Part shown: positions 425-16,456 of the stretch, piece by piece
How positions within the stretch are numbered: the stretch's first letter is position 1
Layout of the letters: each line of letters begins with the position of its first letter
Assembly (NCBI GenBank): GCA_021735645.1
Contig: JAIPGP010000007.1
Location: 36 to 64,035 of the forward strand
Origin: Candidatus Cloacimonadota bacterium
GTDB taxonomy: Bacteria > Cloacimonadota > Cloacimonadia > Cloacimonadales > TCS61
DNA: 64,000 bases
Direction of reading: 5' to 3'
Notes under the pieces: model-generated
What the model was told of the DNA's origin: nothing
Seen by the model: only the letters and a program-made list of their open reading frames with translations
The model's database searches: none
Program-made: the position numbers and the translations under genes

Positions 425-1753
425 ATGATAAAAAAAATGAGATTAGTAGTGTTTTTGGCAGCAATTATGCTGATTTTTGGTTGTACATCAAATGATCCGA
501 TGCCATCTTCACAAGCACAAAACATGGAAGATCTGGAAATACCAGATGGATTTGACTGGGACTTCACAAAAATTGTAGAAGTAGAACTTTTTGCCCATGA
601 CACTGAGAATAATCCAGTTCAGGGAGTAGAAGTATCTCTTTATAAGACCCAGAATAATCTGGCATTCAAAATGTCAACTAACCCCATTGGAAGATTAAAG
701 ACCAGTATCACGATGCCGGAGTCAGACAATTCAGTAATTCTGGAATTTGACGGGCAGCAGGTATCCGTGCCAGTGACAGGGAATTCAGTTTATTATGAAA
801 TGACAGTGAATCCAGTAAGAGAGAACCGCGATCGTGGTGGTGACGTGTATGTACCTGGCTATACTTCGGTTTATACTTTGATGTTTGAAGATAACTGGCC
901 AGTCAAGGGAGATTATGATTTCAATGATATGGTAGTGGAATCCAAGTGTCATTTACGCTATGAAGGTTCCGGGGCAACCAATTATCTGAATTATATCGAA
1001 GCAGAAGCAACAGTAATAGCATCAGGTGCCACTTATCATAATGGCTTCAATATCATCTTTGAGACCACAGCTTTTCCGGATATTTCGTTAGGTGATATAA
1101 TAACCTATAGCGCTTATGATTCAGAAGGGCAATTACCAATGACTTCTGAAGAAGTAACTGCTGCTTATGGCACAGAGTTGATCTGGGGTATGGGTACCTC
1201 TGATCATATGCAGTTTAAATTTTTTGATGATATAAATGACGTAATGTCTCCTCCTCAAGGCTATCTGGCAATGAATACTGATAGTAGAGCTCCCTGGGTA
1301 AATCCCATCAAAATCAAGATGAAAATCGACTATGCCGAAACACATCTTATACTATATTCAAATGAAGTAATTGATTTAACTCAATTAAATCCCTATATCA
1401 CAGTTGATAATAATCCTGGCTACGAGATTCACCTTCCAGGTGAATTTGTTACAGACAATTTTAGTCAATCGGCATTATTTGGCACTGGAGATGATTTCGG
1501 TGGATCCTTTACCACAGCAGAAGGATATTCCTGGGGTTTGAAGCTGGAAGGAATACTGGAGTATCCCAAAGAACAGGTAGATATAATCCAGGCATATCCA
1601 CGACTTGCTCAATATTTCGCCGGGGAACTGAGCATATTTGAGAAATGGTGGAGACCTCATCCAGACCCAGATCACTTAGAAGGGAAAGTTTATGATCGAG
1701 GCGATATGACAGCAGATGATCAAGAGAATTATGATTATCATCCACCGGAATAA
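425..1753 (+). CDS. LruC domain-containing lipoprotein (DUF4842-type)
   Basis: 442-aa ORF with a GGAGA SD upstream of the ATG. The N-terminus MIKKMRLVVFLAAIMLIFGC carries a lipobox (IFG|C). FEDNWPVKGDYDFNDMVV matches the signature I recall for LruC-domain proteins. A strong terminator follows. Confidence 0.75.
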   Translation: MIKKMRLVVFLAAIMLIFGCTSNDPMPSSQAQNMEDLEIPDGFDWDFTKIVEVELFAHDTENNPVQGVEVSLYKTQNNLAFKMSTNPIGRLKTSITMPESDNSVILEFDGQQVSVPVTGNSVYYEMTVNPVRENRDRGGDVYVPGYTSVYTLMFEDNWPVKGDYDFNDMVVESKCHLRYEGSGATNYLNYIEAEATVIASGATYHNGFNIIFETTAFPDISLGDIITYSAYDSEGQLPMTSEEVTAAYGTELIWGMGTSDHMQFKFFDDINDVMSPPQGYLAMNTDSRAPWVNPIKIKMKIDYAETHLILYSNEVIDLTQLNPYITVDNNPGYEIHLPGEFVTDNFSQSALFGTGDDFGGSFTTAEGYSWGLKLEGILEYPKEQVDIIQAYPRLAQYFAGELSIFEKWWRPHPDPDHLEGKVYDRGDMTADDQENYDYHPPE

Positions 1754-1775
1754 ATAAAAGAATTTATCACAAAAT

Positions 1776-1806
1776 AAAAAACCCGCTTTGGCGGGTTTTT
1801 TATTTT
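1776..1806. terminator. bidirectional intrinsic terminator between convergent genes
   Basis: The sequence is aaaaaACCCGC-tttg-GCGGGTtttttatttt. A GC stem is flanked by an A-run on one side and a T-run on the other. It sits between the stop of 425..1753 (+) and the stop of 1828..2451 (-). Confidence 0.8.
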
Positions 1807-1827
1807 GTACTTATTTTTTTTATCTGT

Positions 1828-2451
1828 CTAAATGATCCGGGTAATAATATCCATTAATGAGAACCCTATCTGAGGTGGTAAACTGGAATCGTGATTGATC
1901 CTCATGCTGCGGGGCAATTCTATATGCAGGGTATTCCAGCGTTTATCAGTAACCGTTTTAGAGTATTGTGCCGTGAAATATATCTTTTCATAATCACCGG
2001 ATATAGTCAGGTGTGCCAGTTCCGGCACTTTTGATGTTTCAGCGAGCAGTTTTTCGGCAAAAACTTTGCCAAATTCGGGGTTATAGGGCCCCGAAGAGAT
2101 TTCAATATCAAAGGCGGCATTTCTGGAGCCATGTCCATGAACTTCAATTACTAGATCAGGGTTCATGCTTTCTATAAAGCGAAAATAATCTGAACCTTCT
2201 TCTTTATTCGGGTCAAAGAAATAGCGGCTGGCAATAATGCATGAACATTGGAGTTCCTGAGCCAGATAACTGCCGAGAAAGCCGGCATTTTCATCAGCAT
2301 TTCTATCACAAAGCATCCGCAATATGCCTCTGGGAGCATGATGAGGAACAGCTACTACAATATTACTGTCGGATACAATATCGGTCAGCAGGAGAGGGTT
2401 CAATTTATCACTAAGATAATTAGCCCATTTATAATTAAATTTATTATTCAA
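1828..2451 (-). CDS. putative zinc amidohydrolase of the N-formylglutamate amidohydrolase / PghP-like fold (candidate gamma-glutamyl hydrolase)
   Basis: 207-aa ORF, the last gene of the pgs operon, starting 8 nt after the preceding stop. Motifs VPHHAPRG, DENAG, SRYFFDPNK and IEVHGHGS resemble the His/Asp(Glu)/His metal site and D-x-N-[RK] motif of FGase-type hydrolases. The assignment is from memory of those families. The ORF itself is solid; the function is tentative. Confidence 0.55.
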   Translation of the reverse strand: MNNKFNYKWANYLSDKLNPLLLTDIVSDSNIVVAVPHHAPRGILRMLCDRNADENAGFLGSYLAQELQCSCIIASRYFFDPNKEEGSDYFRFIESMNPDLVIEVHGHGSRNAAFDIEISSGPYNPEFGKVFAEKLLAETSKVPELAHLTISGDYEKIYFTAQYSKTVTDKRWNTLHIELPRSMRINHDSSLPPQIGFSLMDIITRII

Positions 2452-2459
2452 AACATTCC

Positions 2460-3494
2460 TTATTTTAGATGAATATCATACAAGAAGGTGATACCGGTTT
2501 TCCAGAAACTGTATTCCTTATCATCAATAACTGATGGGACAGGTGATTCAGTGTTTCGGAAACCATATTCAGCTTTCAGGACAAGAGCCAGATTCTTATG
2601 CAGTGATTTATATATACTGGTCTTAATGGAATGAATATAATCATTGCGTCCGTAATGATAAGTATCAATTTCATACTCGGAGTCAAAATATCGGGTTTCA
2701 AGCTGGTAACTGAGATTTAAAGTAGTTTTTAAGGGCATTTTTTTAAATTTGAGATCGCAACTATAAATATTTGACTGATAGGACGCATCCTTGATCACAT
2801 CTATCAGCTCTGGTTCGGCAAAAGCCTCTTCTGCATCAGCATCAGAGAGCCTCCAGCCATACCGGCAAAGCAGCTCAAACCTGCTTACAGGCTGCCAGTT
2901 CATATAAATATTAGAAGTGATGATGCCAGCATCATACTCAGTGAACCACTTATTGAAAAATAATTGTGAATATTGCAGTCCATACCTGAAGGTAAGATTT
3001 TTATGCATATCCCACTTAAGATCAGCAGTATAATAATTCTTACTATACTCAAATTTGTGATATTCATCATCAATTACACTATGATATTGTCTGACATAAA
3101 TCTGCGGGTAATAGTAATATTTAAAGCTCAGGTCCAGCTTCCGGTTAAAATACTGCCTGATCCCGAATGAGAGATAGCCAGTATCTTTGACGGAATTTTC
3201 CAGATATTTATCAAAACTGAGTCTTAGTTCATCAATCTGAGTATGACCATTAAAGAAGTAGTTTTTTAATTTAAATGAATAAGTCATATTCATGATCATA
3301 TCGTCAAGAGCTGAGATCAGATATTTTTCCGGATTATCATTATTGAGAAATTCGTCCTGATCATCCCCGGATAGCAGGACCACATTACTATCATACTCGA
3401 ATCCAATATCAATTCCACTATCAAGAGTGATCTTGCGAGACCATAAAGAGATCATGGTTAAAAGTATCAGAGTAACTAAAAGAAATCTTTTCAT
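2460..3494 (-). CDS. secreted Tyr-rich protein, probable outer-membrane beta-barrel
   Basis: 344-aa ORF with signal peptide MKRFLLVTLILLTMISLWS. It has an N-proximal FEYDSNV motif, an alternating aromatic/polar pattern throughout, and many Y/N/D residues. It starts 1 nt after the upstream stop, so it is probably co-transcribed with the pgs genes. Confidence 0.55.
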   Translation of the reverse strand: MKRFLLVTLILLTMISLWSRKITLDSGIDIGFEYDSNVVLLSGDDQDEFLNNDNPEKYLISALDDMIMNMTYSFKLKNYFFNGHTQIDELRLSFDKYLENSVKDTGYLSFGIRQYFNRKLDLSFKYYYYPQIYVRQYHSVIDDEYHKFEYSKNYYTADLKWDMHKNLTFRYGLQYSQLFFNKWFTEYDAGIITSNIYMNWQPVSRFELLCRYGWRLSDADAEEAFAEPELIDVIKDASYQSNIYSCDLKFKKMPLKTTLNLSYQLETRYFDSEYEIDTYHYGRNDYIHSIKTSIYKSLHKNLALVLKAEYGFRNTESPVPSVIDDKEYSFWKTGITFLYDIHLK

Positions 3495-3495
3495 A

Positions 3496-4362
3496 CTATT
3501 TTTTTCCTACAGCTGATTTTGAGATATATAATCTGTATAATATTCCTTGAGGCTGTGAATCCACTATTTTTACGGTATGCTTACCTTTAGGGATATTGAT
3601 GATATTAATTTTACCCTGGGTCACAATGCTGCTGCTGTCAGCGAGGCAGGAAGTGGAATAAGGCAGAGAATCCGCTGCTTCCAGAATTTCTTTATCATCC
3701 AGGTATGCTTTCCAATTAAAGGAAAGATTTTCTACTTTATCAACGATTAACCGATTAATGATCTTAAGATTAAGCGGTCCCTGGAGATCAAGAGCAATGC
3801 CATTATAGTTACCCTGATAATAGGTATAAACCTTGTCATTTACCAGGATATCGAGGCTGTTATCATAATAATCTGGCGGATAGGCAATGTAATCTGTATC
3901 TGTTTTATGTTTTTTTACCTTCCTGGTATCAGGATTAACTTTAACGAGCATCGGATGACCTGAGGAATTATTGATAACCAGTTTTTTTCCTGGTAAGGTA
4001 AGATAAAATCTATAACTGTTCCAGGACGAAACCTTATCTCCATTAACTCCCCGGGAAATATTACTGAATCTAATATTCCTGCTAACCTTATGTGATTCTC
4101 CGTCATAAACTGCATCATAAAAATACTGGGAATCAGCGACGGCATTTGTGATGAGACGGCTGATGACAGTAATGCTGTCTGGAGCTGATGTTTCCCAGCT
4201 ATATTTCTCACCCGGCATTAGTTTTATGTATTTATAAAGCTTTCCACTGGATGAATTAAATACATAATACTTTTTTTGTTTTTGGCTGGCATTTACAACC
4301 ATGATCACCATCAAAACAAAAATCAATAGAAATATTACTTTTTCTCTGGTTATATTTTTCAT
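3496..4362 (-). CDS. hypothetical signal-anchored/secreted protein of the pgs operon
   Basis: The ORF track gives 3496..4386, overlapping the upstream gene by 23 nt. I prefer ATG 4362 (MKNITREKVIFLLIFVLMVIMVVNA|SQ), which is 1 nt after the upstream TGA and has GAGG upstream. I recognised no domain. Confidence 0.6.
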   Translation of the reverse strand: MKNITREKVIFLLIFVLMVIMVVNASQKQKKYYVFNSSSGKLYKYIKLMPGEKYSWETSAPDSITVISRLITNAVADSQYFYDAVYDGESHKVSRNIRFSNISRGVNGDKVSSWNSYRFYLTLPGKKLVINNSSGHPMLVKVNPDTRKVKKHKTDTDYIAYPPDYYDNSLDILVNDKVYTYYQGNYNGIALDLQGPLNLKIINRLIVDKVENLSFNWKAYLDDKEILEAADSLPYSTSCLADSSSIVTQGKINIINIPKGKHTVKIVDSQPQGILYRLYISKSAVGKK

Positions 4363-4363
4363 A

Positions 4364-5464
4364 TCAGGCATTAACCTCATCATCACGTAATTTCATCTGA
4401 CTATGATCAAAAATGATCACAATTGAGATAAGAGCTATCAATATAAACAGCGAAATGATAGCTATTGTAACATTATACCTTTCATCCACAAACATGCTTC
4501 CGATTCCAACTTCAGGAATTGGCACCGGTGCCTGAGGTAATTCATAACTGCGGGCTATCCTGGTTACATCAGCCAAATGAATGATGGGTGTGCCATTTTC
4601 AGCGAATTCAAACATGGTGCCCTTGCGAGGAATATTATTATTATGAATATTCCTGTGATAGCCATCAGTGATCAATCTGCCATTAATAGAAGACCCGATT
4701 GAGGATAATCCACCACCGATATTTATATAGGCATCATATTTTTTATAACTTTCACGATAAATATCCATCTTTTTCCTGATATTTCCATCCAGATCATTTT
4801 CACGAACCAGGGTTACTCCGTTTCTTTCAATAGCCTTCAAGATCATATCTCTACCCAGGACATTCAATCCCCTTCCCAGGTCTCTGCCACCACCTATCGA
4901 GGCAGCTTTTGTCTTATAGGGGAAAATTCCCTCATTATATAGAAATGACTCCATATCCAGCCAGGTGAATTCCGGGTCAGTTGCCCCAAACATGGAAGCT
5001 CCTACAGAATTGATGCTTACAACTTTTAATCCTAATACCTTTGCCGCCGAATAAATGGCAATATTGATAGCAGGATACGAGCTGGTGGAACTAACGGCGA
5101 TTCGATCACCTTCAGAAAGTTTAGCCTTTTTGAATAAGGAAATAATCACCGCCGCATAATTAGGGTTCAAGCTGGTTAATTTACCTTCCAGGGAACCTCT
5201 ATCAGTAGTAATCGGTGTTTCTTTGAGACCAATAATACCACTTTGATTGGGATCATTTTCCGGGTCACAATAAGCTCCACAAAAAGTACGATATTCACTT
5301 AGAGCATCTGTAGCCTGCTTCATCAGCTGGGCTGCTTCCATCTTTTCTGAATAATCCTTCTCTTTGATGAACATGCGTGAGTTATTTACCCAGATAAACA
5401 ACAAGATGGAAATAATAAATAAAATTATTAAACTTAAATTAGACTTTGCACTTGGTACAAACAT
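4364..5464 (-). CDS. poly-gamma-glutamate system protein (non-PgsA third component), bitopic membrane protein
   Basis: 366-aa ORF starting 10 nt after pgsC. An N-terminal TM (LSLIILFIISILLFIWV) and a C-terminal TM (VTIAIISLFILIALISIVIIF) flank a ~300-aa domain. It occupies the PgsA/CapA slot but lacks the GD..GR, NNH, HWG.E and GHHPH motifs I recall for PgsA. This fits the family named 'poly-gamma-glutamate system protein'. The family call is by position and topology only. Confidence 0.55.
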   Translation of the reverse strand: MFVPSAKSNLSLIILFIISILLFIWVNNSRMFIKEKDYSEKMEAAQLMKQATDALSEYRTFCGAYCDPENDPNQSGIIGLKETPITTDRGSLEGKLTSLNPNYAAVIISLFKKAKLSEGDRIAVSSTSSYPAINIAIYSAAKVLGLKVVSINSVGASMFGATDPEFTWLDMESFLYNEGIFPYKTKAASIGGGRDLGRGLNVLGRDMILKAIERNGVTLVRENDLDGNIRKKMDIYRESYKKYDAYINIGGGLSSIGSSINGRLITDGYHRNIHNNNIPRKGTMFEFAENGTPIIHLADVTRIARSYELPQAPVPIPEVGIGSMFVDERYNVTIAIISLFILIALISIVIIFDHSQMKLRDDEVNA

Positions 5465-5474
5465 ATTCCTGCCC

Positions 5475-5930
5475 TTACATTATTGAAATTAATTCACCGC
5501 CAAAGACAATATTGATCATTAATCTAACCAATACTGCGGCGACAAACATAACGGTTAAAGTTCTGGTGATGCCCTGTTTTGCCATGGCATTTGCTATCAA
5601 TCCCGGGATAATATAACCAATTACATTCACGGAGTAATCTGCCGGAATTCCCGAATAAATTCCATAAGTTCGCACCAGCCAGCCAAATATAAAGCCCAGC
5701 AGGATAGAGATCACCATACGGCGGCGCCCATATATGAACATGACCTTTCCCAGCAGTTTAACTATCAGATATACGGCAAAACTTATTATCAGAGTCCCCA
5801 GTATCGTCCAGGGCTGATGTAAAAACATGGCAATATATCCCGCAACTACTATACCTCCGGCTGTTGTACCAAAGGTTTCCAGAAAGAATAAACTTACTAA
5901 TACTCCTAAACCAATAGCAGCTTCAAACAT
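5475..5930 (-). CDS. pgsC: poly-gamma-glutamate biosynthesis membrane protein PgsC/CapC
   Basis: 151-aa polytopic membrane ORF. The N-terminus (GLGVLVSLFFLETFG..AGGIVVAGYIAMFLHQP) and GYIIPGLIANAMAKQG align by eye with B. subtilis PgsC (149 aa, ...GIIVPGLIANTIQRQG...). It starts 2 nt after pgsB. Confidence 0.85.
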   Translation of the reverse strand: MFEAAIGLGVLVSLFFLETFGTTAGGIVVAGYIAMFLHQPWTILGTLIISFAVYLIVKLLGKVMFIYGRRRMVISILLGFIFGWLVRTYGIYSGIPADYSVNVIGYIIPGLIANAMAKQGITRTLTVMFVAAVLVRLMINIVFGGELISIM

Positions 5931-5932
5931 TA

Positions 5933-7093
5933 TTAATTACTCCTCTCTTTGAAATAATCGACAATTGGACCTCCATTACCGCCAATATTACCTATACCGA
6001 AAACCAGAATCTTTTCTGGCTCTAAAGTACATATTTCTTTAACCAGTTCATCACCCTTACACCAGCCCAGTGGGAAAATCTTTTCGGCAGGAATCCCATG
6101 CCCGGTGGCGTAATTGTGAATCGTCAGTTCCTGATCACCAATCAGGAATAAACCATTAAACTTATGTGTACCCAGCATTTCCGTAAGCTGCCGGGAACGG
6201 TACATACGGTCTGCTCTCGTATTCAGTACAATAGCGACACCCGGAACCTCAGAATGAATTTTATGGATATATTCCATAAGAACGAAAGTGGATTCGGGAT
6301 CATTGGCAGCAAAGGAATGAGCAAAGTATAATTCTTTACCATTCACTTTATATTTAAAAATCTCCGTTGCTCCAATATCGGGAATGGAATTATACATTCC
6401 CTTTATCGCAACTTCTTTTTCTACTCCACAGCGTCGGCATACTTCCAGAGATAATGCCAGATTATCCTTATGCTCTATCCACTTGAAACCACGCATATCT
6501 TCATCTGTGATATTTTCTTTGCTCACATACTCAAATTCCGTATGTCGGTGGTCTGCCACTTTTTTCATCAGCGGGAATACTTTATTTTCAGAAGTTAAGA
6601 TAATCCCGTGATCAGGAATTGTATTACACATTGATAATGTAACATTTCTTAAACCGGGACCCATCACATCCAGATGATCCGGCCGTGAATTTGTGATCAC
6701 TCCGATGGTGGATTTCACCATCTTGTGCTCAGTTGTCCACTGATACTCAGGCGTAACTGCCATACATTCCAGCACCAGGTAATCAATATTCCTTTTGGCG
6801 GCAAATTTGATGATCTTCAATTGTTCCCTGATATTTGCCCCAAATAGACGCACAATTGCCCTTTCTCTGCCACTGGGATAAATTATCCGTGGTGCTGAAC
6901 CGGTAGTTTTAGCAATCACGCGATAGTTCCCGGCTCGCAGTCCGGCAGCAATCAAACGGGTAACGCTTGATTTTCCACGTGTTCCATTCACATGGATTAT
7001 CTGGGGAATTTTTTTCCGGTTTCGCCTGTGATCCCAGTACTCATGTACACCCCAGCCAATGAGAAGCAATAATCCGATAATTAAACCTAACAT
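5933..7093 (-). CDS. pgsB: poly-gamma-glutamate synthase PgsB/CapB (Mur-ligase-like amide ligase)
   Basis: 386-aa ORF. An N-terminal membrane helix is followed by the P-loop HVNGTRGKSSVTRLIAAGL, typical of PgsB/CapB and Mur/FolC ligases. Its length is close to B. subtilis PgsB, and pgsC follows directly. Confidence 0.85.
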   Translation of the reverse strand: MLGLIIGLLLLIGWGVHEYWDHRRNRKKIPQIIHVNGTRGKSSVTRLIAAGLRAGNYRVIAKTTGSAPRIIYPSGRERAIVRLFGANIREQLKIIKFAAKRNIDYLVLECMAVTPEYQWTTEHKMVKSTIGVITNSRPDHLDVMGPGLRNVTLSMCNTIPDHGIILTSENKVFPLMKKVADHRHTEFEYVSKENITDEDMRGFKWIEHKDNLALSLEVCRRCGVEKEVAIKGMYNSIPDIGATEIFKYKVNGKELYFAHSFAANDPESTFVLMEYIHKIHSEVPGVAIVLNTRADRMYRSRQLTEMLGTHKFNGLFLIGDQELTIHNYATGHGIPAEKIFPLGWCKGDELVKEICTLEPEKILVFGIGNIGGNGGPIVDYFKERSN

Positions 7094-7107
7094 ACTTCCT
7101 TTTTTAT

Positions 7108-7139
7108 TCAGCAGGGGAAAGCCAGCTTTCCCCTGCTGA
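7108..7139 (-). terminator. perfect 14-bp GC-rich hairpin after C25 paralog A (terminator/attenuator-like, no U-tract)
   Basis: TCAGCAGGGGAAAG-ccag-CTTTCCCCTGCTGA lies 7 nt below the stop at 7146. On the minus-strand transcript it is followed by AAUAAAAAAGG (the pgsB SD region), not a U-run. Confidence 0.35.
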
Positions 7140-7145
7140 GATTAT

Positions 7146-10100
7146 TTATTTCATTAATACGCATTTCTTAGTAGTAGTGTGCCGCTTAGATTTCAGTTTA
7201 TAGAAATATACGCCACTACTAACTTGATTATTATTTTCGTCTCTGCCATTCCAGACCCTGTCATAACTCCCTACCTGCAGATAACAGGCAACTATTGTCT
7301 TCACCTTAGCTCCCTTAATATTATATACTGCCAGTTCTATTTCAGCAGCCTGCGGCAGTGAGAAACTGAACATGGTCTCAGGGTTAAATGGGTTAGGATA
7401 ATTTGCCCTGAGTATGGGCATTCCCGCAATAAGGTCAGCTTCATCAGTTCCTGTGAAACTATCAGGAGGTTCTGTGGTGTATTTAATAGCCAGACCAGCC
7501 TGCAGAGGAGTTGCAGAAGCAGGATAAAGACTGGCATGAGAATATAATACACCATCTTCCTGGTGAGGTCCTTCTATACCAATTGTACAGAAATTATCAT
7601 CATAATCAGGGTTATTAACTGTGTTATAATTCACCTGAATAATGCCATTACCGCTATCAGTGGGATAGCCCGTCGGGTCATAGAGCACGATTTCAAAGAG
7701 TTCTACAGAAAGACTATCTTCACGGTTTACCGCATTACTCCATTCTATCACGAAATAGTCTGCAGCAGTATTATAATAGTAGCAAAGCCGTATATCTTCC
7801 ACTCCATCACCGGCACCGATCAGATCATCCCAGTAGGCACATACCTGAGCATCTGCGCCCAGCGCACTCGGTATGATCCAGTTACGGAAATAATGCTGCC
7901 AGGTTGTCTTAAAGGAAATCCAGCCATTTGAACATACCGTTAAACTGTCATACACTTCGCCAAAATAAGTGAAATCAAAAGGAATATCAATATTATTAGA
8001 CTGATCGTCGCTCATTAAGATCACATCTCCCGGTCCACCTTCATCAGGATCAATCTCTTCCCAGAAATATACCGGGGCTTCATTATAAGCAGTATCAAAA
8101 CTGTCATAAGCATAATATCCGCCCAGACATGGTCCGGTGGGGTCTGTATTGGTTACTACACCTATTGTAATATAGAAAGTAGTTTCATATATTCTGCCGG
8201 CCTCATCTTCCAGATGCAGATATATTCCAGCATCTCTGCCATTGAAACCATCCGCTTCAGCAGTGAGATTAAATACTGCTTCAGCACTCGCTCCAGCAGC
8301 CAGATCATTCAAAGAGGCAGTAGCATTATTTACCGTTAAAGCAGTAGTGGCAGAAGTGATCGTAGCTGTCAGGTTAGTAGCTGTCACGCTGCTGGTATTG
8401 GCAATTGTCACTGTAATATCAGAAGTTTCTCCTGGTTCCAGCACGCCATTAGCATCATTAACCACAATTTGACCTGGTATTAAGACAAAATTGGCAACTG
8501 TAAGCGGGAATTTTATCACATTATCAATACCGTCAAATGTCATAAAGAAGGATAATTCATAGCCATTCAGGCATTCACCGGAGATAAGCATCTCAACCGA
8601 TACAGTTGCTGAAGAGCCGGGGTCAAGAGTCCCGAATTCAAAGTCTTCGGAAAGAATCTCTGCCATACCGGTCAATTCAGAGAGTTCTGCCAGGAAAGGA
8701 CTGCTTTCGCTGCCTTGATTAGTAAGAGTAATATCCACAGTAACTGAAGAACCAGCTAAGATTTCGCTGGCAGGCACAACAGCCGTGATCACCGGGTCTA
8801 TAGCTGCTTCTGATACTTCCACACTGGCAAATAATGGCAGATGGTTTACAGCGGTTACCGTTACATCAATATTCCCTTCTGTCTCTGCATTAAAATATAA
8901 TGTAGCAGAATGATCTCTCACAAATTCTGTGACCAGAAATTCATCACCTTTACGTGCCGTTACCATTCCATTGGCTATTTCAGGAATATATATGTCCAGG
9001 TAGCCCTGACCCAGGCAGATTTCTGCTGGCAGGTCACAGCTCATTGGGGCAGGAGTTTTTGTCCACATGCACAAAGACGGGTCTCCGAGAATATTATAGA
9101 CATAAAAATAGAATTCCACAAAATCACCAGTGCCATGAATCAAAGGAAAGCTTTCATAAAGCTCCATTTTTCCACGCAGCACTGCTGTACCAAAGGTATG
9201 AATACCTTCGTCCAGCAAACCTTGATAAAACCCGCCAAATATGGCATTATTATATTTAGTTTTTGTATTTAGATCAGAAGGCCCTACAAATACCACACCA
9301 CCCTTAGGATTAGAGGTATTTCCCGCCGTCAGCCAGAGCTCTCCAAAGCAGGGGTCCACGTTTACATTGGCAAAATCTCCCGTATTACAGACAATAGAAG
9401 TCATCACAGGGAGATACAAGCCGTTTGTGAGTTCTAATATATTTTCAGTATGGAAATAAGGATAGTTCCAGCCCCAGACATTACCCCAGCCACGGTAGGT
9501 TACTATACCCGCACCAGCATTAATAGCATTTTTAATTTCTGTTGTACCGGGGTAAGTGGGATAGTCTGGCCACCAGTAATATATTTCCGTTATATCATCA
9601 TAGCCATAATCGGCAGCTTTTTCTGCCAGCCACATACTGGTAGTCACTGGGGTTTCAGGAATAATATAATCACCATAGTTTCCTGCTACCACTACCATTC
9701 TCTCAAACCAGCCCGGATCATCCATATACGGTGTTTTTTCATAGAGGAGAACCTTGGAAATAATGGTATTCAAATTATCTGCCTGGTCAATAGAGAAGCG
9801 TCCCACTATCATTTCAGGGAAATAATCATCGCCATCCAGTAAAGTGTAGGGATGATCAGTCACATCATTTTCGGATGAGTGATAATAAGAAGGAACCGCA
9901 AATACCCCACTCACGTCACCGATTATCAGCAGATAATCCGGCGGGTGTTCTTCAGTGTCATATACATTCTGAATATAGTTTTTTATCTCAGTTACAGAAT
10001 TGCCAATATCACTCTTCAATACTACTTCGGTGGCAATACCGCGCTCATTTTTCCAGTTCGTAAAATAGCTCAGATTATTCAGCCCTGTATGCGAAATGAT

Positions 10101-10607
10101 CAGCATTTTGGCAGGCATCTCGCTCAGGTTGCGTAAATATGATGTTTCATAATTATCTACAATTTTACTATACAAAGGGGCAAAAACAGAAGATATTGAG
10201 TCAAAAGTCTCTATTTCGCCTTCTGCCTGCAATCTGATTACAGCATTATCAAGTACAAAATTATTCCCTGCTTCTTCGCCTCTCGTTTCTATACGGATAC
10301 GGTGCATGATCAAATCACGCATCACCATGGTTTCTTCCAGCTCGATTCTCCCGGAGGCCAGGCTGAGTCCACTTTCTAGCAGATTGCCGGTATTATCAAA
10401 CAGGCTCACATTAGAATTGAGCAATTCCAGACTCACTTCCCGGGCAGGAAATGCCACGGTGCTGTAATATACTCCATTTTCGGCAGAAAATTCACTGCTG
10501 TTTGTGAGGTGAATATCAAGATGATCAAGGGCAGGTTCATAACTAATTGCTGCATTCATGTAGAATGCCAGCATTAGAAGAAATATAATAATGAAATTCC
10601 GCTTCAC
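7146..10607 (-). CDS. peptidase C25 (gingipain) family protein with T9SS C-terminal sorting domain, paralog A
   Basis: 1153-aa ORF with a GTG start and AAGGAG SD. Signal peptide MKRNFIIIFLLMLAFYMNA. The core VTYRGWGNVWGW...LPVMTSIVCNTGDF...NILGDPSL aligns by eye with the RgpB catalytic region. The C-terminus NYPNPFNPETMFSF..AVYNIKGAKV..GVYFYKLK..KKCVLMK is a type-A T9SS CTD. Confidence 0.8.
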   Translation of the reverse strand: MKRNFIIIFLLMLAFYMNAAISYEPALDHLDIHLTNSSEFSAENGVYYSTVAFPAREVSLELLNSNVSLFDNTGNLLESGLSLASGRIELEETMVMRDLIMHRIRIETRGEEAGNNFVLDNAVIRLQAEGEIETFDSISSVFAPLYSKIVDNYETSYLRNLSEMPAKMLIISHTGLNNLSYFTNWKNERGIATEVVLKSDIGNSVTEIKNYIQNVYDTEEHPPDYLLIIGDVSGVFAVPSYYHSSENDVTDHPYTLLDGDDYFPEMIVGRFSIDQADNLNTIISKVLLYEKTPYMDDPGWFERMVVVAGNYGDYIIPETPVTTSMWLAEKAADYGYDDITEIYYWWPDYPTYPGTTEIKNAINAGAGIVTYRGWGNVWGWNYPYFHTENILELTNGLYLPVMTSIVCNTGDFANVNVDPCFGELWLTAGNTSNPKGGVVFVGPSDLNTKTKYNNAIFGGFYQGLLDEGIHTFGTAVLRGKMELYESFPLIHGTGDFVEFYFYVYNILGDPSLCMWTKTPAPMSCDLPAEICLGQGYLDIYIPEIANGMVTARKGDEFLVTEFVRDHSATLYFNAETEGNIDVTVTAVNHLPLFASVEVSEAAIDPVITAVVPASEILAGSSVTVDITLTNQGSESSPFLAELSELTGMAEILSEDFEFGTLDPGSSATVSVEMLISGECLNGYELSFFMTFDGIDNVIKFPLTVANFVLIPGQIVVNDANGVLEPGETSDITVTIANTSSVTATNLTATITSATTALTVNNATASLNDLAAGASAEAVFNLTAEADGFNGRDAGIYLHLEDEAGRIYETTFYITIGVVTNTDPTGPCLGGYYAYDSFDTAYNEAPVYFWEEIDPDEGGPGDVILMSDDQSNNIDIPFDFTYFGEVYDSLTVCSNGWISFKTTWQHYFRNWIIPSALGADAQVCAYWDDLIGAGDGVEDIRLCYYYNTAADYFVIEWSNAVNREDSLSVELFEIVLYDPTGYPTDSGNGIIQVNYNTVNNPDYDDNFCTIGIEGPHQEDGVLYSHASLYPASATPLQAGLAIKYTTEPPDSFTGTDEADLIAGMPILRANYPNPFNPETMFSFSLPQAAEIELAVYNIKGAKVKTIVACYLQVGSYDRVWNGRDENNNQVSSGVYFYKLKSKRHTTTKKCVLMK

Positions 10608-10656: not shown

Positions 10657-10685
10657 CAGCAGGGGAAAGCTGGTTTCCCCTGCTG
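10657..10685 (-). terminator. 12-bp GC-rich hairpin after C25 paralog B (copy of the 7108 hairpin)
   Basis: CAGCAGGGGAAA-gctgg-TTTCCCCTGCTG lies 8 nt below the stop at 10693. It has the same stem as 7108..7139, so it belongs to the duplicated unit. There is no U-tract. Confidence 0.35.
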
Positions 10686-10692
10686 AGATTAT

Positions 10693-13600
10693 TTATTTCA
10701 TCAATACGCATTTCTTGGTAGTAGTATGCCGCTCAGTTTTCAGTTTATAAAAATACACGCCACTACTTACCTGGTTATTACTTTCATCTCTGCCATTCCA
10801 GACCTTGTCATGATTTCCAGCTTCCAGATATCCTGAAACAATGGTTTTCACTTTTGCTCCCTTGATATTATAAACTGCCAGTTCAATATTGGCAGCCTGG
10901 GGCAGTGAGAAACTGAAAGTAGTTTCAGGATTAAAAGGATTAGGATAATTCGCCATTAGAACAGGCATTTCAGGTAACAGATTTTCATCTTCACCGGTAA
11001 AATCATCCGGAGCTTCTGTAGTATATTTAATTGCCAGTCCGTTTTGCAGCGGAGTAGCTGATGCCGGATAAAGATCGGCATGAGAATATAATACACCATC
11101 TTCCTGATGAGGTCCTTCTATACCTATGGTAGAGTAATTATCATCATTATCAGGATTATTAATAGTATGATAATTCACCTGAATAATACCATTTCCACTA
11201 GTGGTTTGATGTTCTGCCGGATCATAAAGCACTATTTCAAAAAGCTCAACTGAAAGATTATCTTCGCGGTTCACTGCATTGCTCCATTCAATCACGAAAT
11301 AATTTTCAGCAGTATTATAATAATAGCAAAGCCGTATATCTTCCACACCTCCGCCAACACCGATCAGATCATCCCAGTAGGCACATACCTGAGCATTTGC
11401 ACCCAGTGCGCTCGGTATGATCCAGTTACGGAAATAACTCTGCCAGGTTGTCTCAAAAGATATCCAGCCATTAGAACATACCGTTAAACTGTCATATACT
11501 TCGCCAAAGTAAGTGAAATCAAAAGGAATATCAATATTATTGGACTGATCATCCGTCATTAATATCACTTCTCCCAGACCACCTTCTTCGGGATCAATCT
11601 CTTCCCAGAAATATTCCGGGGCTTCATTATAAGCAGTATCAAAACTGTCATAAGCATAATATCCGCCCAGACATGGTCCGGTGGGGTCTGCATTGGTTAC
11701 TACACCTATTGTTAAATAAAAAGTAGTTTCATATATTCTGCCGGCATCATCTTCCAGATGCAGATAGACTCCAGCATCCCTGCCATTAAAGCCACCAGCT
11801 TGGGCAGTAAGATTAAATACTGCCTCAGCACTTGCTCCACCCGTCAGATCACCCAGAGAGGCAGTAGCATTATTAACCGATAAAGCAGTAGTGGCAGAAG
11901 TGATCGTAGCTGTCAGGTTAGTAGCTGTCACGCTGCTGGTATTGGCAATTGTCACTGTAATATCAGAAGTTTCTCCTGGTTCCAGGACGCCATTAGCATC
12001 ATTAACCACAATTTGACCTGGCATTAAGACAAAATTATCAACAGTAAGCGGGAATTTAATCTCATTATCAATGCCGTCAAATGTCATAAAGAAAGATAAT
12101 TCATAGCCATTCAGGCATTCACCCGAGATAAGTAAATCTACCGATACAGTTGCCGAGGAGCCGGGGTCAAGAGTCCCGAATTCAAGGTCTTCTGTAAGTA
12201 TTTCTGCCATACCGGTCAATTCAGAGAGTTCTGCCAGGAAAGGGCTGCTTTCGCTGCCTTGATTAGCAAGGGTAATATCCACAGAAACTGAAGAGCCAGC
12301 TAATATTTCGCTGTCAGGCACAACAGCCGTGATCACCGGATCGATGGCTGCTTCTGATACTTCCACACTGGCAAATAGTGGCAGGTGATTTACAGCGGTT
12401 ACCGTTACATCTATATTTCCTTCTGTCTCTGCATTAAAATATAATGTAGCAGAATGATCTCTCACAAATTCTGTTACCAGAAATTCATCGCCTTTACGTG
12501 CCGTTACCATCCCATTGGCTATTTCAGGAACATATATATCCAGATAGCCTTGACCCAGACTGATTTCTGCTGGCAGGTCACAGCTCATTGGAGTGGGAGT
12601 CTTAGTCCATATACTCAAAGAAGGGTCTCCCAGAATATTATAGACATAATAATAGAATTCCACATTATCACCCGCACCATGGTTCAAAGGGAAGCTTTTA
12701 TAAAGTTCTGTTTTTCCGCGCAGCACCGCAGTACCAAAGGTATGAATACCTTCGTCCAGCAAGCCTTGATAAAACCCGCCAAAAATAGCATTATTATATC
12801 TGGTTTTAGTATGCAGATCAGAAGGACCTACAAATACCACACCACCCTTGGGATTAGAGGTGTTACCGGCGGTCAGCCAGAGTTCTCCAAAGCAGGGGTC
12901 CACATTAGCATTGGCAAAATCCCCCGTATTACAGACAATAGAAGTCATCACAGGGAGATACAAGCCGTTTGTGAGTTCTAATATATTTTCAGTATGGAAA
13001 TAAGGATAGTTCCAGCCCCAGGCATTACCCCAGCCACGGTAGGTTACTATACCCGCACCAGCATTAATAGCATTTTTAATTTCTGTTGTACCGGGGTAAG
13101 TGGGATAGTCTGGCCACCAGTAATATATTTCCGTTATATCATCATAGCCATAATCAGCAGCTTTTTCAGCCAGCCACATACTGGTTGTTACTGGAGTAGT
13201 AGGAGGAGGTGGAGTATCGCTATAGTTCCCAGCTACTATAACCATCCGCTCAAACCATCCTGGGTCTGTCATATATGGTGTTTTTTCATAATGGAGAACC
13301 TTGGAAACAATAGTATTCAAATTATCTGACTGGTCAATAGAGAAGCGTCCCACTATCATTTCAGGGAAATAATCATCGCCATCCAGTAAAGTGTAGGGAT
13401 GATCAGTCACATCATTTTCGGACGAATGATAATACGAAGGGACAGCAAATGCCCCATTCACGTCACCGATTATCAGCAGATAATCCGGCGGGTGTTCTTC
13501 AGTGTCATAAATATTCTGAACATAGTCTTTTATCTCAGATACTGTATTGCCAATATCGCTTTTCATCACTACTTCCGTAGCAATACCACGCTCATTTTTC

Positions 13601-14154
13601 CAATTTGTAAAATAGCTGAGATTATTCAATCCGGTATGCGAAATAATCAGCATCTTGGCTGGCATCTCGCTCAGGTTGCGTAAATAAGAGGTATCATAAT
13701 TATCTACAATTTTACTATATAAAGGGGCAAACACAGAAGAAACTGTTTCAAAAGTCTCAATTTCGCCTTCTGCCTGCAATCTGATTACAGCATTATCAAG
13801 AACAAAATTATTCCTGGCTTCTTCGCCTCTTGTTTCTATACGGATACGGTGCATGATCAAATCACGCATCACCATGGTTTCTTCCAGCTCAATTCTCCCG
13901 GAAGCCAGGCTGAGTCCACTTTCTATCAGATTGCCGGTATTATCAAACAGACTCACTTCAGAATTGAGCACTTCCAGGTTGACTTCCCGGGCAGGAAATG
14001 CCACTGTACAGTAATATACTCCGTTTTCGGTTGCCAATTCGCTGCCGTTTGTGAGTTGAATATCAAGATGATCAAGGGCATTTTCATAGCTGACAGCAGC
14101 ATTAAGCATGCCTGCCAGTACCAGCATAACTATTATAAATAACTTATGTTTCAT
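10693..14154 (-). CDS. peptidase C25 (gingipain) family protein with T9SS C-terminal sorting domain, paralog B
   Basis: 1153-aa ORF with an ATG start and AAGGAGA SD. It is collinear with paralog A along its full length with high identity by eye. It has the same RGWG / IVCNTGDF / LGDPSL motifs and the same kind of T9SS CTD. Confidence 0.8.
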   Translation of the reverse strand: MKHKLFIIVMLVLAGMLNAAVSYENALDHLDIQLTNGSELATENGVYYCTVAFPAREVNLEVLNSEVSLFDNTGNLIESGLSLASGRIELEETMVMRDLIMHRIRIETRGEEARNNFVLDNAVIRLQAEGEIETFETVSSVFAPLYSKIVDNYDTSYLRNLSEMPAKMLIISHTGLNNLSYFTNWKNERGIATEVVMKSDIGNTVSEIKDYVQNIYDTEEHPPDYLLIIGDVNGAFAVPSYYHSSENDVTDHPYTLLDGDDYFPEMIVGRFSIDQSDNLNTIVSKVLHYEKTPYMTDPGWFERMVIVAGNYSDTPPPPTTPVTTSMWLAEKAADYGYDDITEIYYWWPDYPTYPGTTEIKNAINAGAGIVTYRGWGNAWGWNYPYFHTENILELTNGLYLPVMTSIVCNTGDFANANVDPCFGELWLTAGNTSNPKGGVVFVGPSDLHTKTRYNNAIFGGFYQGLLDEGIHTFGTAVLRGKTELYKSFPLNHGAGDNVEFYYYVYNILGDPSLSIWTKTPTPMSCDLPAEISLGQGYLDIYVPEIANGMVTARKGDEFLVTEFVRDHSATLYFNAETEGNIDVTVTAVNHLPLFASVEVSEAAIDPVITAVVPDSEILAGSSVSVDITLANQGSESSPFLAELSELTGMAEILTEDLEFGTLDPGSSATVSVDLLISGECLNGYELSFFMTFDGIDNEIKFPLTVDNFVLMPGQIVVNDANGVLEPGETSDITVTIANTSSVTATNLTATITSATTALSVNNATASLGDLTGGASAEAVFNLTAQAGGFNGRDAGVYLHLEDDAGRIYETTFYLTIGVVTNADPTGPCLGGYYAYDSFDTAYNEAPEYFWEEIDPEEGGLGEVILMTDDQSNNIDIPFDFTYFGEVYDSLTVCSNGWISFETTWQSYFRNWIIPSALGANAQVCAYWDDLIGVGGGVEDIRLCYYYNTAENYFVIEWSNAVNREDNLSVELFEIVLYDPAEHQTTSGNGIIQVNYHTINNPDNDDNYSTIGIEGPHQEDGVLYSHADLYPASATPLQNGLAIKYTTEAPDDFTGEDENLLPEMPVLMANYPNPFNPETTFSFSLPQAANIELAVYNIKGAKVKTIVSGYLEAGNHDKVWNGRDESNNQVSSGVYFYKLKTERHTTTKKCVLMK

Positions 14155-14167
14155 ATTTTCTCCTTGT

Positions 14168-16456
14168 TTATCTGATCAGGATCATTTTACGGTTTATAAT
14201 TTCTGAATCGGTTTTTAACTGATAGAAATATACACCGCTGGCTGTTGTCTGTCCGGCATTGTTTCTACCGTCCCAGCTTATAGTATATTTTCCGGCAGGT
14301 ACAGTTTCTGATACCAGTGAGCGGACCTTTTGTCCCCTCAGGTTATAGACACTAAGTTCCACTTCACCAGCCTGAGAAATAGAATAATCTATTTTACAAG
14401 TTCCTATTCTGCTATTATTTGCATAAAATGGATTAGGATAACTCACGCCCAGGGCAGTTACTGCCGGCAATTCACTTTCCTGCTGGTCAACTGCTGTAGC
14501 AGAAACCAGCTTCATCTCGCCTATCCACCAGCCGGGATCATCAAGGCTGTCATCTGTGCTCAGCCTAAAGCGTATCCGTGAATATGTATCCACATAATCA
14601 CTCAGATCAATGTAATCATACTTCCAGCTTCTCACACCGGACAGGGTTTTCACCTGCTGCCATATATCACTGCCGTCAGGTTTGATCTCAATATAGCAGA
14701 AATCATAACCGTGCTCTGTATGATAGTTGTTCATAACCTTCAAACTCAGTTCACTGGCACCATGCAAATTGAAGAAGCCTTCAATTTCCAAAGTGCTTTC
14801 TGATGAATTTTGATAAAAACGGTTGGGTGTATCTTTTGCGGCAGGAACGCCATAAATAGGATCTGCACCAATATACCAGTCACCATCCACAACCCACTGT
14901 GAGAAATCACCGCTCCAGTCCTCGCTGAACAGCACTACTTCCGGCTCCATAACAATATTATAATTATTCTCACCTGCTGCCAGATCAATACTGACAAATT
15001 TAGTGGTATAGCCTTCTGCACTTAGCACAAATTCTGCTGTTCCTTCCCACCAGTCGATTTCATAATTCTGCTCATCTACCGCAACACCAAATATTTCATC
15101 ACCCATTTCATGAAGAACTATAATAGACAAGGGTGTTGGTGTTCCAGAAAACGATACTGACCCGGATAAAGTTGCATCTGCCAAAGGCTGCAAAGCCACA
15201 TCACGGACTGTCTGTACCATATTGCTCACATAGACTGATTGAACATTATCTGCATAACCTTTCTTGCGGACATGCAAAGTATAACTTCTCGCTGCACAAA
15301 TCCACCAGTAGCGCCCATAAAGTTCATCACTAAAACGGGGAGTGAAGGAAGGGGCATTTCTTTCTTCAATTATATATTCTGCCTGAAGAGGTTCTCCAGT
15401 TACAGCATCAGTGATAATACCCTTAAGCAGGGCTTTATCGTCGGATTGATAACCCAATACCCGGTTCATCATATGATAAGGTGCCACCTTGCAGCGCTCA
15501 ATGGTATCCAGCAGAATCTCGGGTCCCGGCTGCAAATTAGAGGTTCCCGCCTCAATCTCAAACTGCAAAGTGCCATATTCATTATAAAACCAGTCATGAG
15601 CTTTGGAATTTCTGCCTTCGGTCGGAAAGGGCTGGTAATATCCCGAACCGGTCTGATTTTCAATCATATAAGCTATTGTAGCAGCATAGGCAGCATTAAA
15701 TTCCAAATCCACGCAAGGCTTCTGTTGCTCCCAGTTCCAGGGATAATATACCTTCTCGGAAAGATTACCCGTTCGCGATGAATGCCAGGCTATTGAAAGG
15801 ATAAAGTGCTGCTCATCTGCGAGTTGTTTCACATACTGCGCTTCCGGTTCTGAAAAGGGTGAAGGTCCCCGGTAGTAATCATAAAGTTCATTACCGCCAG
15901 GAGTATATAATGTATCACTGTGTACCCAGTTGAAGTCATAATTCCGGTTCAGGTCCACTCCATCAACATCATGTCCGACACCTACCACAAAATCAAATAT
16001 GCCATTGTTATTTGTATCAGACTTATTCTTACGGTATGATGTATCCCATTCATCGGTTACCACCTGTAATCCTTCGGGATTATGGGTCGGTACTATCCAG
16101 ATTTCTATATTATTTATCAATGTAGTGTAATAGGTAGTATTGTGGTATAACAGCATTTCATGGATCATAGCCATACAGATTTCCACACCCATAACTTCTT
16201 CGGCATGGCACTGTCCCAAAAACAGGACTGCGGGTTCATCTTCATCTACTGTCACGTTATCAGATATCTTCACAGCTAATACGGGCAACCCATCTGTGGC
16301 AGTCACACCCAGTTCACGTACCATCATTATATCGGGATACTGCTGCTGCAGCGAATCCAGTTCAGCAGCAATTTCTGCATTATTATGATATATCGGGTCA
16401 AGTCCCCAGATATTCAGGACTGCCAGCAATATCATCAGCAATATTATTCTTTTCAT
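14168..16456 (-). CDS. M14 family zinc carboxypeptidase with T9SS C-terminal sorting domain
   Basis: 762-aa ORF with a signal peptide. It has the HxxE zinc motif (GQCHAEEVMG), NPEG, NRNYDFNW, and IAWHSS (the third zinc ligand region). A carboxypeptidase-regulatory-like segment follows (GIITDAVTGEPL). The C-terminus SYPNPF...LSVYNLRGQKV...GVYFYQLK is a CTD. Confidence 0.8.
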   Translation of the reverse strand: MKRIILLMILLAVLNIWGLDPIYHNNAEIAAELDSLQQQYPDIMMVRELGVTATDGLPVLAVKISDNVTVDEDEPAVLFLGQCHAEEVMGVEICMAMIHEMLLYHNTTYYTTLINNIEIWIVPTHNPEGLQVVTDEWDTSYRKNKSDTNNNGIFDFVVGVGHDVDGVDLNRNYDFNWVHSDTLYTPGGNELYDYYRGPSPFSEPEAQYVKQLADEQHFILSIAWHSSRTGNLSEKVYYPWNWEQQKPCVDLEFNAAYAATIAYMIENQTGSGYYQPFPTEGRNSKAHDWFYNEYGTLQFEIEAGTSNLQPGPEILLDTIERCKVAPYHMMNRVLGYQSDDKALLKGIITDAVTGEPLQAEYIIEERNAPSFTPRFSDELYGRYWWICAARSYTLHVRKKGYADNVQSVYVSNMVQTVRDVALQPLADATLSGSVSFSGTPTPLSIIVLHEMGDEIFGVAVDEQNYEIDWWEGTAEFVLSAEGYTTKFVSIDLAAGENNYNIVMEPEVVLFSEDWSGDFSQWVVDGDWYIGADPIYGVPAAKDTPNRFYQNSSESTLEIEGFFNLHGASELSLKVMNNYHTEHGYDFCYIEIKPDGSDIWQQVKTLSGVRSWKYDYIDLSDYVDTYSRIRFRLSTDDSLDDPGWWIGEMKLVSATAVDQQESELPAVTALGVSYPNPFYANNSRIGTCKIDYSISQAGEVELSVYNLRGQKVRSLVSETVPAGKYTISWDGRNNAGQTTASGVYFYQLKTDSEIINRKMILIR

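Follow-up and report, generated by a model that had tools for sequence, protein, structure and literature searches.

The locus described here lies in a 64,000-nucleotide stretch (the window, by which we mean the whole of that stretch) of contig JAIPGP010000007.1 from a Candidatus Cloacimonadota bacterium, a source genome whose closest relatives are Ca. Stygibacter metagenome-assembled genomes, and it carries genes for the putative synthesis and secretion of poly-gamma-glutamate (PGA). Six tightly packed open reading frames (ORFs) occupy positions 1828-7093 of the minus strand, beginning with pgsB and pgsC and continuing with four genes that we call P3 to P6 (Table 1). A first-pass annotation of this DNA had described a six-gene minus-strand unit here, and the unit was confirmed at all of its coordinates, as were its junctions, which measure, in order from pgsB to P6, 2, 10, 1, 1 and 8 nucleotides (nt), the third becoming a 23-nt overlap (-23) when the longer form of P4 is taken. 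The shorter form, starting at the ATG at 4362 and giving 288 amino acids (aa), was chosen by an independent gene caller and fits the N-termini of the homologues.

Table 1. Genes and other features at and around the putative PGA locus, in window coordinates
Feature	Coordinates	Strand	Description
pgsB	5933-7093	-	386 aa, ligase subunit of poly-gamma-glutamate synthase
pgsC	5475-5930	-	151 aa, four-helix membrane subunit of the synthase
P3	4364-5464	-	366 aa, TIGR04332
P4	3496-4362 (or 4386)	-	288 aa (or 296 aa), predicted secreted periplasmic protein
P5	2460-3494	-	344 aa, predicted outer-membrane beta-barrel
P6	1828-2451	-	207 aa, PghP/FGase zinc-amidohydrolase fold
Terminator-like hairpin	1769-1808		stem of 18 pairs (6 of them GC), 4-nt loop, an A-run and a T-run on opposite sides
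LruC-domain / DUF4842 protein	425-1753	+	convergent neighbour, lipoprotein-like N-terminus
GC-rich hairpin	7107-7140		in the 52-nt spacer that precedes pgsB
C25-like type IX secretion cargo	7146-10607	-	1153 aa; Peptidase_C25 PF01364 (5.1e-62), Por_Secre_tail, CARDB
C25-like tandem paralogue	10693-14154	-	89% identical to 7146-10607
M14 zinc carboxypeptidase	14168-16456	-	762 aa; Peptidase_M14 (5.6e-39), Por_Secre_tail
GH43-like protein	16498-19503	-	type IX secretion tail
LVIVD-repeat lipoprotein	19516-20571	-	351 aa, lipobox LFTGC, LVIVD (1.2e-6); heads the same-strand array

By their matches to curated models, the first two genes are PgsB and PgsC, and the identities given to them in the first pass proved genuine, both being full-length matches above the cut-off. 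PgsB scored 397.2 bits against the TIGR04012 equivalog (cut-off 222.7; E 6e-119) over model positions 4-380 of 380, carries the P-loop NGTRGKSS at residues 36-43 (HVNGTRGKSS) within a Mur-ligase-like protein (Mur_ligase_M, E 1.3e-8), and begins with a membrane helix (residues 1-19) that is followed by a domain placed in the cytoplasm. PgsC scored 116.8 bits against TIGR04011 (cut-off 96.45; E 7.8e-34), also matched PF14102 CapC (E 3.5e-33), and has four hydrophobic helices. PGA is the predicted product of the locus.

P3 matched TIGR04332, the "poly-gamma-glutamate system protein" model, with 313 bits (cut-off 100; E 2e-93) over model positions 2-307 of 307, and belongs to a family with 1224 cluster representatives at E<=1e-3. 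Because the scores of PgsB, PgsC and P3 all exceed their cut-offs and dozens of independent loci share the gene order, the assignment of the locus is far beyond chance. The protein has membrane helices at residues 8-26 and 334-352 with a domain of about 300 aa between them, which agrees with its earlier description as a bitopic 366-aa protein lacking PgsA motifs. PGA_cap, the PgsA/CapA family, was matched neither by P3 in the Pfam search nor by 40 members of the P3 family at E<=1, so that P3 as a divergent PgsA/CapA is ruled out. A weak SIS_2 match (E 0.025) was not reproduced across the P3 family. P3 directly follows pgsB-pgsC in the window, as it does in the related loci L005-L093 and L094-L173 (L-numbers denote loci and, below, longer P-numbers denote homologous proteins), and it stands in for PgsA here. 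Judged by its model match, the P3 family is not new: it is catalogued as TIGR04332, the Francisella FTT_0807 "capA" bears this annotation (PMC5362203), and in Gram-negative PGA operons and in Cloacimonadota the protein has been named "PgsF" (bioRxiv 10.1101/2025.11.11.687785); no further PGA-related paper using that name was among the literature matches listed.

Two surveys were made of the gene neighborhoods. In the first, which was seeded with P3 and used one genome per species, 511 genomes had a P3 relative; the best 80 loci were examined and scored with iterated profile hidden Markov models (HMMs) for the six proteins. The order pgsB-pgsC-P3-P4-P5 was found in 64 of these approximately 80 loci and, with P6 appended, in 6 more (70 in total), the remainder being mostly contigs that end early; the source genomes were labeled Cloacimonadota, Bacteroidales/Bacteroidota, Ignavibacteriales, KSB1, Neomarinimicrobiota and Auribacterota. 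The second, a metagenome scan seeded with P5, gave 80 loci in which P5 identity ranged from 57% down to 22% and GC content from 27 to 61%, and wherever the upstream DNA extended for 4.2 kb or more (33 loci), pgsB, pgsC, P3 and P4 were all present (33 of 33). P6 was encoded in 6 of the approximately 80 P3-seeded loci, all close relatives of the window, and in 0 of the 80 P5-seeded loci. By synteny, then, the conserved unit is five genes rather than six, pgsB-pgsC-P3-P4-P5, forming a sub-type of PgsA-less PGA system, since P4 and P5 are syntenic with pgsBC-P3 while P6 is clade-restricted. Of the three downstream genes that the first-pass annotation had counted into the unit, the co-occurrence with pgsBC held for P4 and P5 and failed for P6.

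A minority of the metagenome loci (L113, L116, L128 and L139) have P5 upstream of pgsB rather than after P4, and the gene set is therefore kept more strictly than the order. Two Auribacterota-like loci, L047 and L084, contain pgsB-pgsC-P3-P4 with P5 undetected in the flank, and several small ORFs (150-230 aa) come next on the same strand; another protein may have taken over from the barrel in these loci.

Members of the unit also occur as natural fusions. P3-P4 fusions form four independent clusters (P0162, P0174, P0182 and P0189), one of them with an NCBI record and one on a 957-kb contig, and a P4-P5 fusion of 636 aa is encoded in L086. One P3-P5 fusion (P0229) and one P3-P4-P5 fusion (P0253, at 1212-3944 of L090) were also seen. 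The P3-P4 fusions have, after the second P3 helix, a linker rich in Arg and Lys and then a signal-peptide-like helix ending in Ala-x-Ala. Because of this architecture, and because P4 is secreted when unfused, the P3 domain would face the periplasm; the PgsA domain faces outward in Bacillus. The internal signal-peptide-like helix is retained in the fusion proteins and might be cut there by signal peptidase.

P5 had been read as a beta-barrel-like secreted protein, and the present results bear this out. It has a signal peptide, its AlphaFold model is a closed barrel of 14 antiparallel strands (pLDDT, the predicted local distance difference test, 77), and the strands are amphipathic, with alternating hydrophobic and polar registers. 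The top Foldseek match was OmpG (2x9k; E 1.8e-11, TMt 0.67-0.71), followed by CymA, FadL and classical porins, with 362 porin matches in the PDB at E<=1e-3. We accordingly describe P5 as a predicted outer-membrane beta-barrel. It shares its strand number, barrel fold and signal peptide with the 14-stranded monomeric porins OmpG and CymA, but it is only 9-12% identical to them, has its own conserved motifs (YDxN, FTEYD, DPxHAGR and EKDY) and is strictly operonic with a polymer synthase. The window protein ends in ...YDIHLK; of about 75 homologues, 26 terminate in F and 6 in Y, and L and K are also frequent at this position. Sequence searches gave P5 no match to a Pfam outer-membrane protein family, to NCBIfam or to the PDB. 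A homologue that is 72% identical (P0125) is listed with a precomputed match to PF26895.1, and the barrel family may therefore have an accession already, PF26895.

P4 consists of a signal peptide and two homologous beta-rich repeats of about 115 aa (hhalign probability 99.3%, E 1.2e-20). Its description as a signal-anchored protein stands as far as the signal peptide is concerned, but not as a permanent anchor, the signal peptide being of the classical cleavable type in most homologues. P4 had no match in Pfam or NCBIfam, and TPR or related Pfam domains were found in neither P4 nor P5.

The sixth gene was modeled with high confidence (pLDDT 95.2). Its closest folds in Foldseek include N-formylglutamate amidohydrolase (FGase; 2q7s, E 3.1e-6, TM-score 0.52), and it superposes on the phage PhiNIT1 hydrolase PghP (3a9l) with TM-scores of 0.60/0.60 and a root-mean-square deviation of 3.8 A over 208 columns, and on the PGA hydrolase of phage Bobb with a TM-score of 0.61; Amidase_3 and M14 carboxypeptidases come next in rank. 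Nine residues are invariant in the family (H37, H38, D53, E54, E103, H105, H107, H176 and E178), and the invariant His, Asp/Glu and His sit at strand ends, where the PghP and FGase families bind zinc, which makes H38, E54, H105/H107 and E178 candidate zinc-site residues. The FGase/PghP likeness suggested in the first pass therefore holds for the fold, but not for sequence membership: neither P6 nor 32 members of its family matched PF05013 (FGase) or PF05908 (PghP) at E<=5, P6 had no match in Pfam, NCBIfam or PHROGs, and its identity to PghP and FGase is 12-13% without an HMM match, despite the shared fold and, for PghP, the same size (207 aa). Membership at the sequence level is thus ruled out, the fold alone matching. 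The family is widespread and has at least 305 members, all labeled hypothetical and none with a Pfam domain, and most are stand-alone genes unlinked to pgs; homologues at about 45% identity (P0102, P0072 and P0018, in L002, L003 and L004) lie in unrelated neighborhoods. These contexts, together with its absence from the P5-seeded loci, show that P6 is not among the conserved components, and by its distribution it is a clade-restricted addition to the five-gene unit. Since P6 has no signal peptide, and no membrane helix either, the trimming of PGA outside the cell that had been proposed for it is unlikely; this predicted cytoplasmic location also sets it apart from PghP, which is active outside the cell. 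Most plausibly, on a weak inference from its modeled fold, P6 would be a cytoplasmic gamma-glutamyl amidohydrolase that recycles or clears product.

Characterized PGA systems of Bacillus belong to hosts that have no outer membrane. The window resembles the PgsBCA(E)/CapBCADE systems in that PgsB and PgsC are orthologous by the equivalog models and the next gene of the operon encodes a third protein, anchored in the membrane and bearing an extracytoplasmic domain. It differs from them in that this third protein is not PgsA/CapA and has two membrane helices instead of one, in that homologues of PgsE, CapD and PgdS were not identified in the window cassette, and in the addition of two genes whose predicted products belong to the periplasm and the outer membrane. 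With the three-gene pgsB-pgsC-TIGR04332 loci, described as capBCA in Francisella and as "CapB, CapC, PgsF" in Cloacimonadota, it has the first three genes in common in kind and order, but those descriptions end at the third gene, whereas in the window and about 100 further loci P4 and P5 come next. Since genuinely three-gene loci do exist (L092 and L093), the five-gene type would be a distinct sub-type. PGA genes in Cloacimonadota and the TIGR04332 family are already known; a 2025 preprint reports that a capB/capC cluster is near-ubiquitous in the phylum and that DAPI-stained material, taken as PGA, surrounds enriched Cloacimonadota (10.1101/2025.11.11.687785). The P4-P5 pair, its linkage to pgs and its fusions were not found in the searchable literature.

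A second comparison concerns organization. Synthase-dependent exopolysaccharide systems include those for alginate (Alg8/44-AlgK-AlgE), poly-N-acetylglucosamine (PgaCD-PgaB-PgaA) and cellulose (BcsAB-BcsC), and like the five-gene unit they bring together in a single operon a polymerase/translocase of the inner membrane, a partner protein in the periplasm and an outer-membrane barrel dedicated to the polymer. With its periplasmic domain placed ahead of a C-terminal barrel, the P4-P5 fusion of L086 is laid out like PgaA and BcsC. The analogy is functional only, as neither sequences nor families were found to be related to AlgK/AlgE, PgaA or BcsC: P4 consists of beta-rich repeats rather than TPR, P5 has 14 predicted strands against 16-18, the polymer would be a polyamide instead of a polysaccharide, and no cyclic di-GMP receptor was seen.

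We consider it probable that the locus is a PgsA-less, TIGR04332-type system for PGA synthesis and secretion, extended by a module of two proteins that takes the polymer across the outer membrane. An outer-membrane-adapted PGA system had been the thrust of the first-pass annotation, and it remains the best reading, with P4 and P5 strictly syntenic with pgsBC-P3 and in some proteins fused to P3. We infer the export roles of P4 and P5, and PGA as the polymer, as follows. PgsB, a cytoplasmic ATP-dependent amide ligase, would together with PgsC and P3 polymerize glutamate and translocate the chain across the inner membrane; P4 would bridge the periplasm, receiving or guiding the chain; and the P5 barrel would be the outer-membrane conduit that releases it. 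P6, as a recent clade-restricted addition, may hydrolyze gamma-glutamyl oligomers inside the cell, in recycling or in the removal of stalled product.

Several observations weigh against this reading. Two distant TIGR04332 loci from other diderm lineages, L092 and L093, have only three genes, neither P4 nor P5 being found within 10 kb at E<=1, so that these two proteins are not needed in every such system. Only one P3-P5 and one P3-P4-P5 fusion were seen, on short metagenomic contigs, where an assembly or frameshift artefact is possible. The confidence of the P5 model is moderate (pLDDT 77, from 12 sequences), and its predicted lumen is marginally basic, with 18 K+R against 16 D+E. Profile searches of the PDB gave no relative for P4 and no meaningful relative for P3. 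For the topology of P3, the positive-inside rule is uninformative at helix 1, and for that reason the architecture of the fusions was used instead.

PGA has been studied almost wholly in Bacillus, and how this large polyanion crosses the outer membrane of diderms has not been worked out in the searchable literature. Our results nominate P4 and P5 for this step, backed by synteny in both directions and by natural fusions. The five-gene arrangement is widespread: its carriers belong to Cloacimonadota, Bacteroidota, Ignavibacteriota and allied phyla and come from lakes, sediments and anaerobic digesters. It bears on floc and biofilm formation and on syntrophy in anaerobic digesters, and it offers parts for PGA secretion from Gram-negative production hosts.

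The same-strand array does not stop at the six genes but reaches 20571, and flanking ORFs of the surveyed loci were clustered to find recurrent neighbors. A C25-like protein of 1150-1270 aa with a type IX secretion C-terminal domain lies directly upstream of pgsB on the same strand in 39 of the 58 loci with enough upstream DNA (12 of 19 labeled Cloacimonadota and 27 of 39 others), and in 33 of the 40 loci outside Cloacimonadota the gene after P5 encodes an LVIVD lipoprotein. The window LVIVD protein is a homologue of this lipoprotein of the Bacteroidota-type loci: it and the lipoprotein of L044 match over their full length (BLASTP E 2e-8) and have a common mature N-terminus, xPNDPE. Since the C25-like protein and the LVIVD lipoprotein are conserved neighbors, the system is not self-contained in 1828-7093, as had been supposed at first. 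The M14 carboxypeptidase keeps its position in the related Cloacimonadota loci L005 and L007. In the Bacteroidota-type loci (L035-L089), P5 is followed by the LVIVD lipoprotein, an HGSNAT_cat-type membrane protein of about 370 aa and a DUF3859-like lipoprotein of about 414 aa. L091, from a GC-rich genome, has a shuffled order (C25, P5, LVIVD, HGSNAT-type, pgsB, pgsC and a P3::P4 fusion), with its LVIVD and HGSNAT genes near pgs at 1870-5599.

In an alignment of C25 motifs with an RgpB gingipain reference, the position of the catalytic His reads YRGWG in the neighbors from Cloacimonadota and YRGEGW in those of the Bacteroidota type, with the Cys kept; a non-adjacent C25 paralogue in L005 has the canonical GHG and serves as a control within the data. 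The pgsB-adjacent proteins are thus likely pseudo-peptidases or non-canonical enzymes and, because the His of the dyad is missing, the C25-like protein is more likely a surface binding or handling factor than a protease. Together with the LVIVD lipoprotein, it may retain or handle the polymer on the outside of the cell. Such C25-like and LVIVD neighbors of pgs were not found in the searchable literature, and the recurrence of a C25-like pseudo-peptidase suggests a possible connection with type IX secretion, likewise not described there.

A more far-reaching proposal, which we put forward tentatively and regard as possible rather than probable, is that the five-gene cassette, the C25-like and LVIVD proteins and, in some lineages, the HGSNAT-type and M14 proteins together make up an undescribed trans-envelope machine of the Fibrobacteres-Chlorobi-Bacteroidetes (FCB) group. 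The polyamide would be threaded through the P4 adaptor and the 14-stranded barrel and would be held or processed at the surface by type IX cargo. If true, no earlier case would be known of a dedicated route across the outer membrane for a capsule polymer that is not a polysaccharide, and the machine would link PGA capsules to type IX secretion.

It is unlikely, in our view, that P4 and P5 belong to the PGA system without forming an export conduit, P5 being instead an anchor or docking site for the capsule or a porin for the uptake of glutamate or gamma-glutamyl peptides, with PGA leaving the cell by another way. The lumen of the model is not clearly electropositive, the nearest folds (OmpG, CymA and FadL) are general or substrate-specific uptake porins, the surface-located neighbors (C25-like, M14 and the LVIVD lipoprotein) suggest that the polymer is handled at the surface, and another route must exist in those diderms whose three-gene TIGR04332 loci lack P4 and P5. 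However, the co-linearity and fusion with P3, an inner-membrane protein, are easier to reconcile with a trans-envelope assembly than with a porin for uptake, and the exporter layout of the L086 fusion, like that of PgaA and BcsC, also speaks for a conduit.

CapD anchors PGA in Bacillus anthracis, and on that model the gamma-glutamyl chain might be built on or transferred to an acceptor (a lipid, glycan or surface protein, for example) rather than released as free PGA, with the C25-like protein as a transpeptidase-like or binding partner. Free PGA is not known to have been demonstrated in Francisella, which counts on the side of an acceptor-linked chain. The C25-like protein stands next to pgsB across phyla with its Cys kept, an HGSNAT-type gene of a membrane acyltransferase family co-occurs in the Bacteroidota-type loci and in L091, and the Francisella capBCA genes, with a TIGR04332 "CapA" (PMC5362203), are required for virulence. 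Yet PgsB scores as a PGA synthase equivalog, the position of the catalytic His in C25 is Trp or Glu depending on the lineage, which argues against conserved catalysis, and about a third of the loci have no C25 neighbor; we consider an acceptor-linked product decidedly unlikely. That all six genes act as one functional unit in which P6 trims or releases exported PGA is most improbable, for although P6 lies 8 nt from P5 with a terminator in common, keeps its order in L005, L006, L011 and L012 and has its closest fold in the phage hydrolase PghP (TM-scores of 0.60-0.61), it carries neither signal peptide nor membrane helix, is missing from at least 64 five-gene loci and from 80 of the 80 P5-seeded loci, belongs to a mainly stand-alone family from unrelated contexts and falls outside PF05908 and PF05013 in sequence.

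Returning to the favored reading of a PGA export locus, its transcriptional boundaries differ at the two ends. Between the 3' end of the operon and the convergent gene lies the hairpin at 1769-1808, which agrees with the terminator placed at 1776-1806 in the first pass and, with its A-run and T-run flanks, plausibly acts as a bidirectional terminator for both. The LruC/DUF4842 gene holds the same place downstream of P6 in L001, L005, L006 and L012. The upstream end is not clean, with 52 nt between pgsB and the same-strand C25-like gene. A sigma-70 promoter scan gave no convincing promoter in this gap, and an Rfam scan of 1-24000 for riboswitches or leaders gave no match. The GC-rich hairpin at 7107-7140 is followed on the transcribed strand by an A-rich rather than a U-rich tract, and it has a second copy at 10657-10685 (4 arm matches against 0.01 expected). 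The tandem duplication of the C25-like gene includes the hairpin after each gene; in related loci, L005 for example, the gene is not duplicated.

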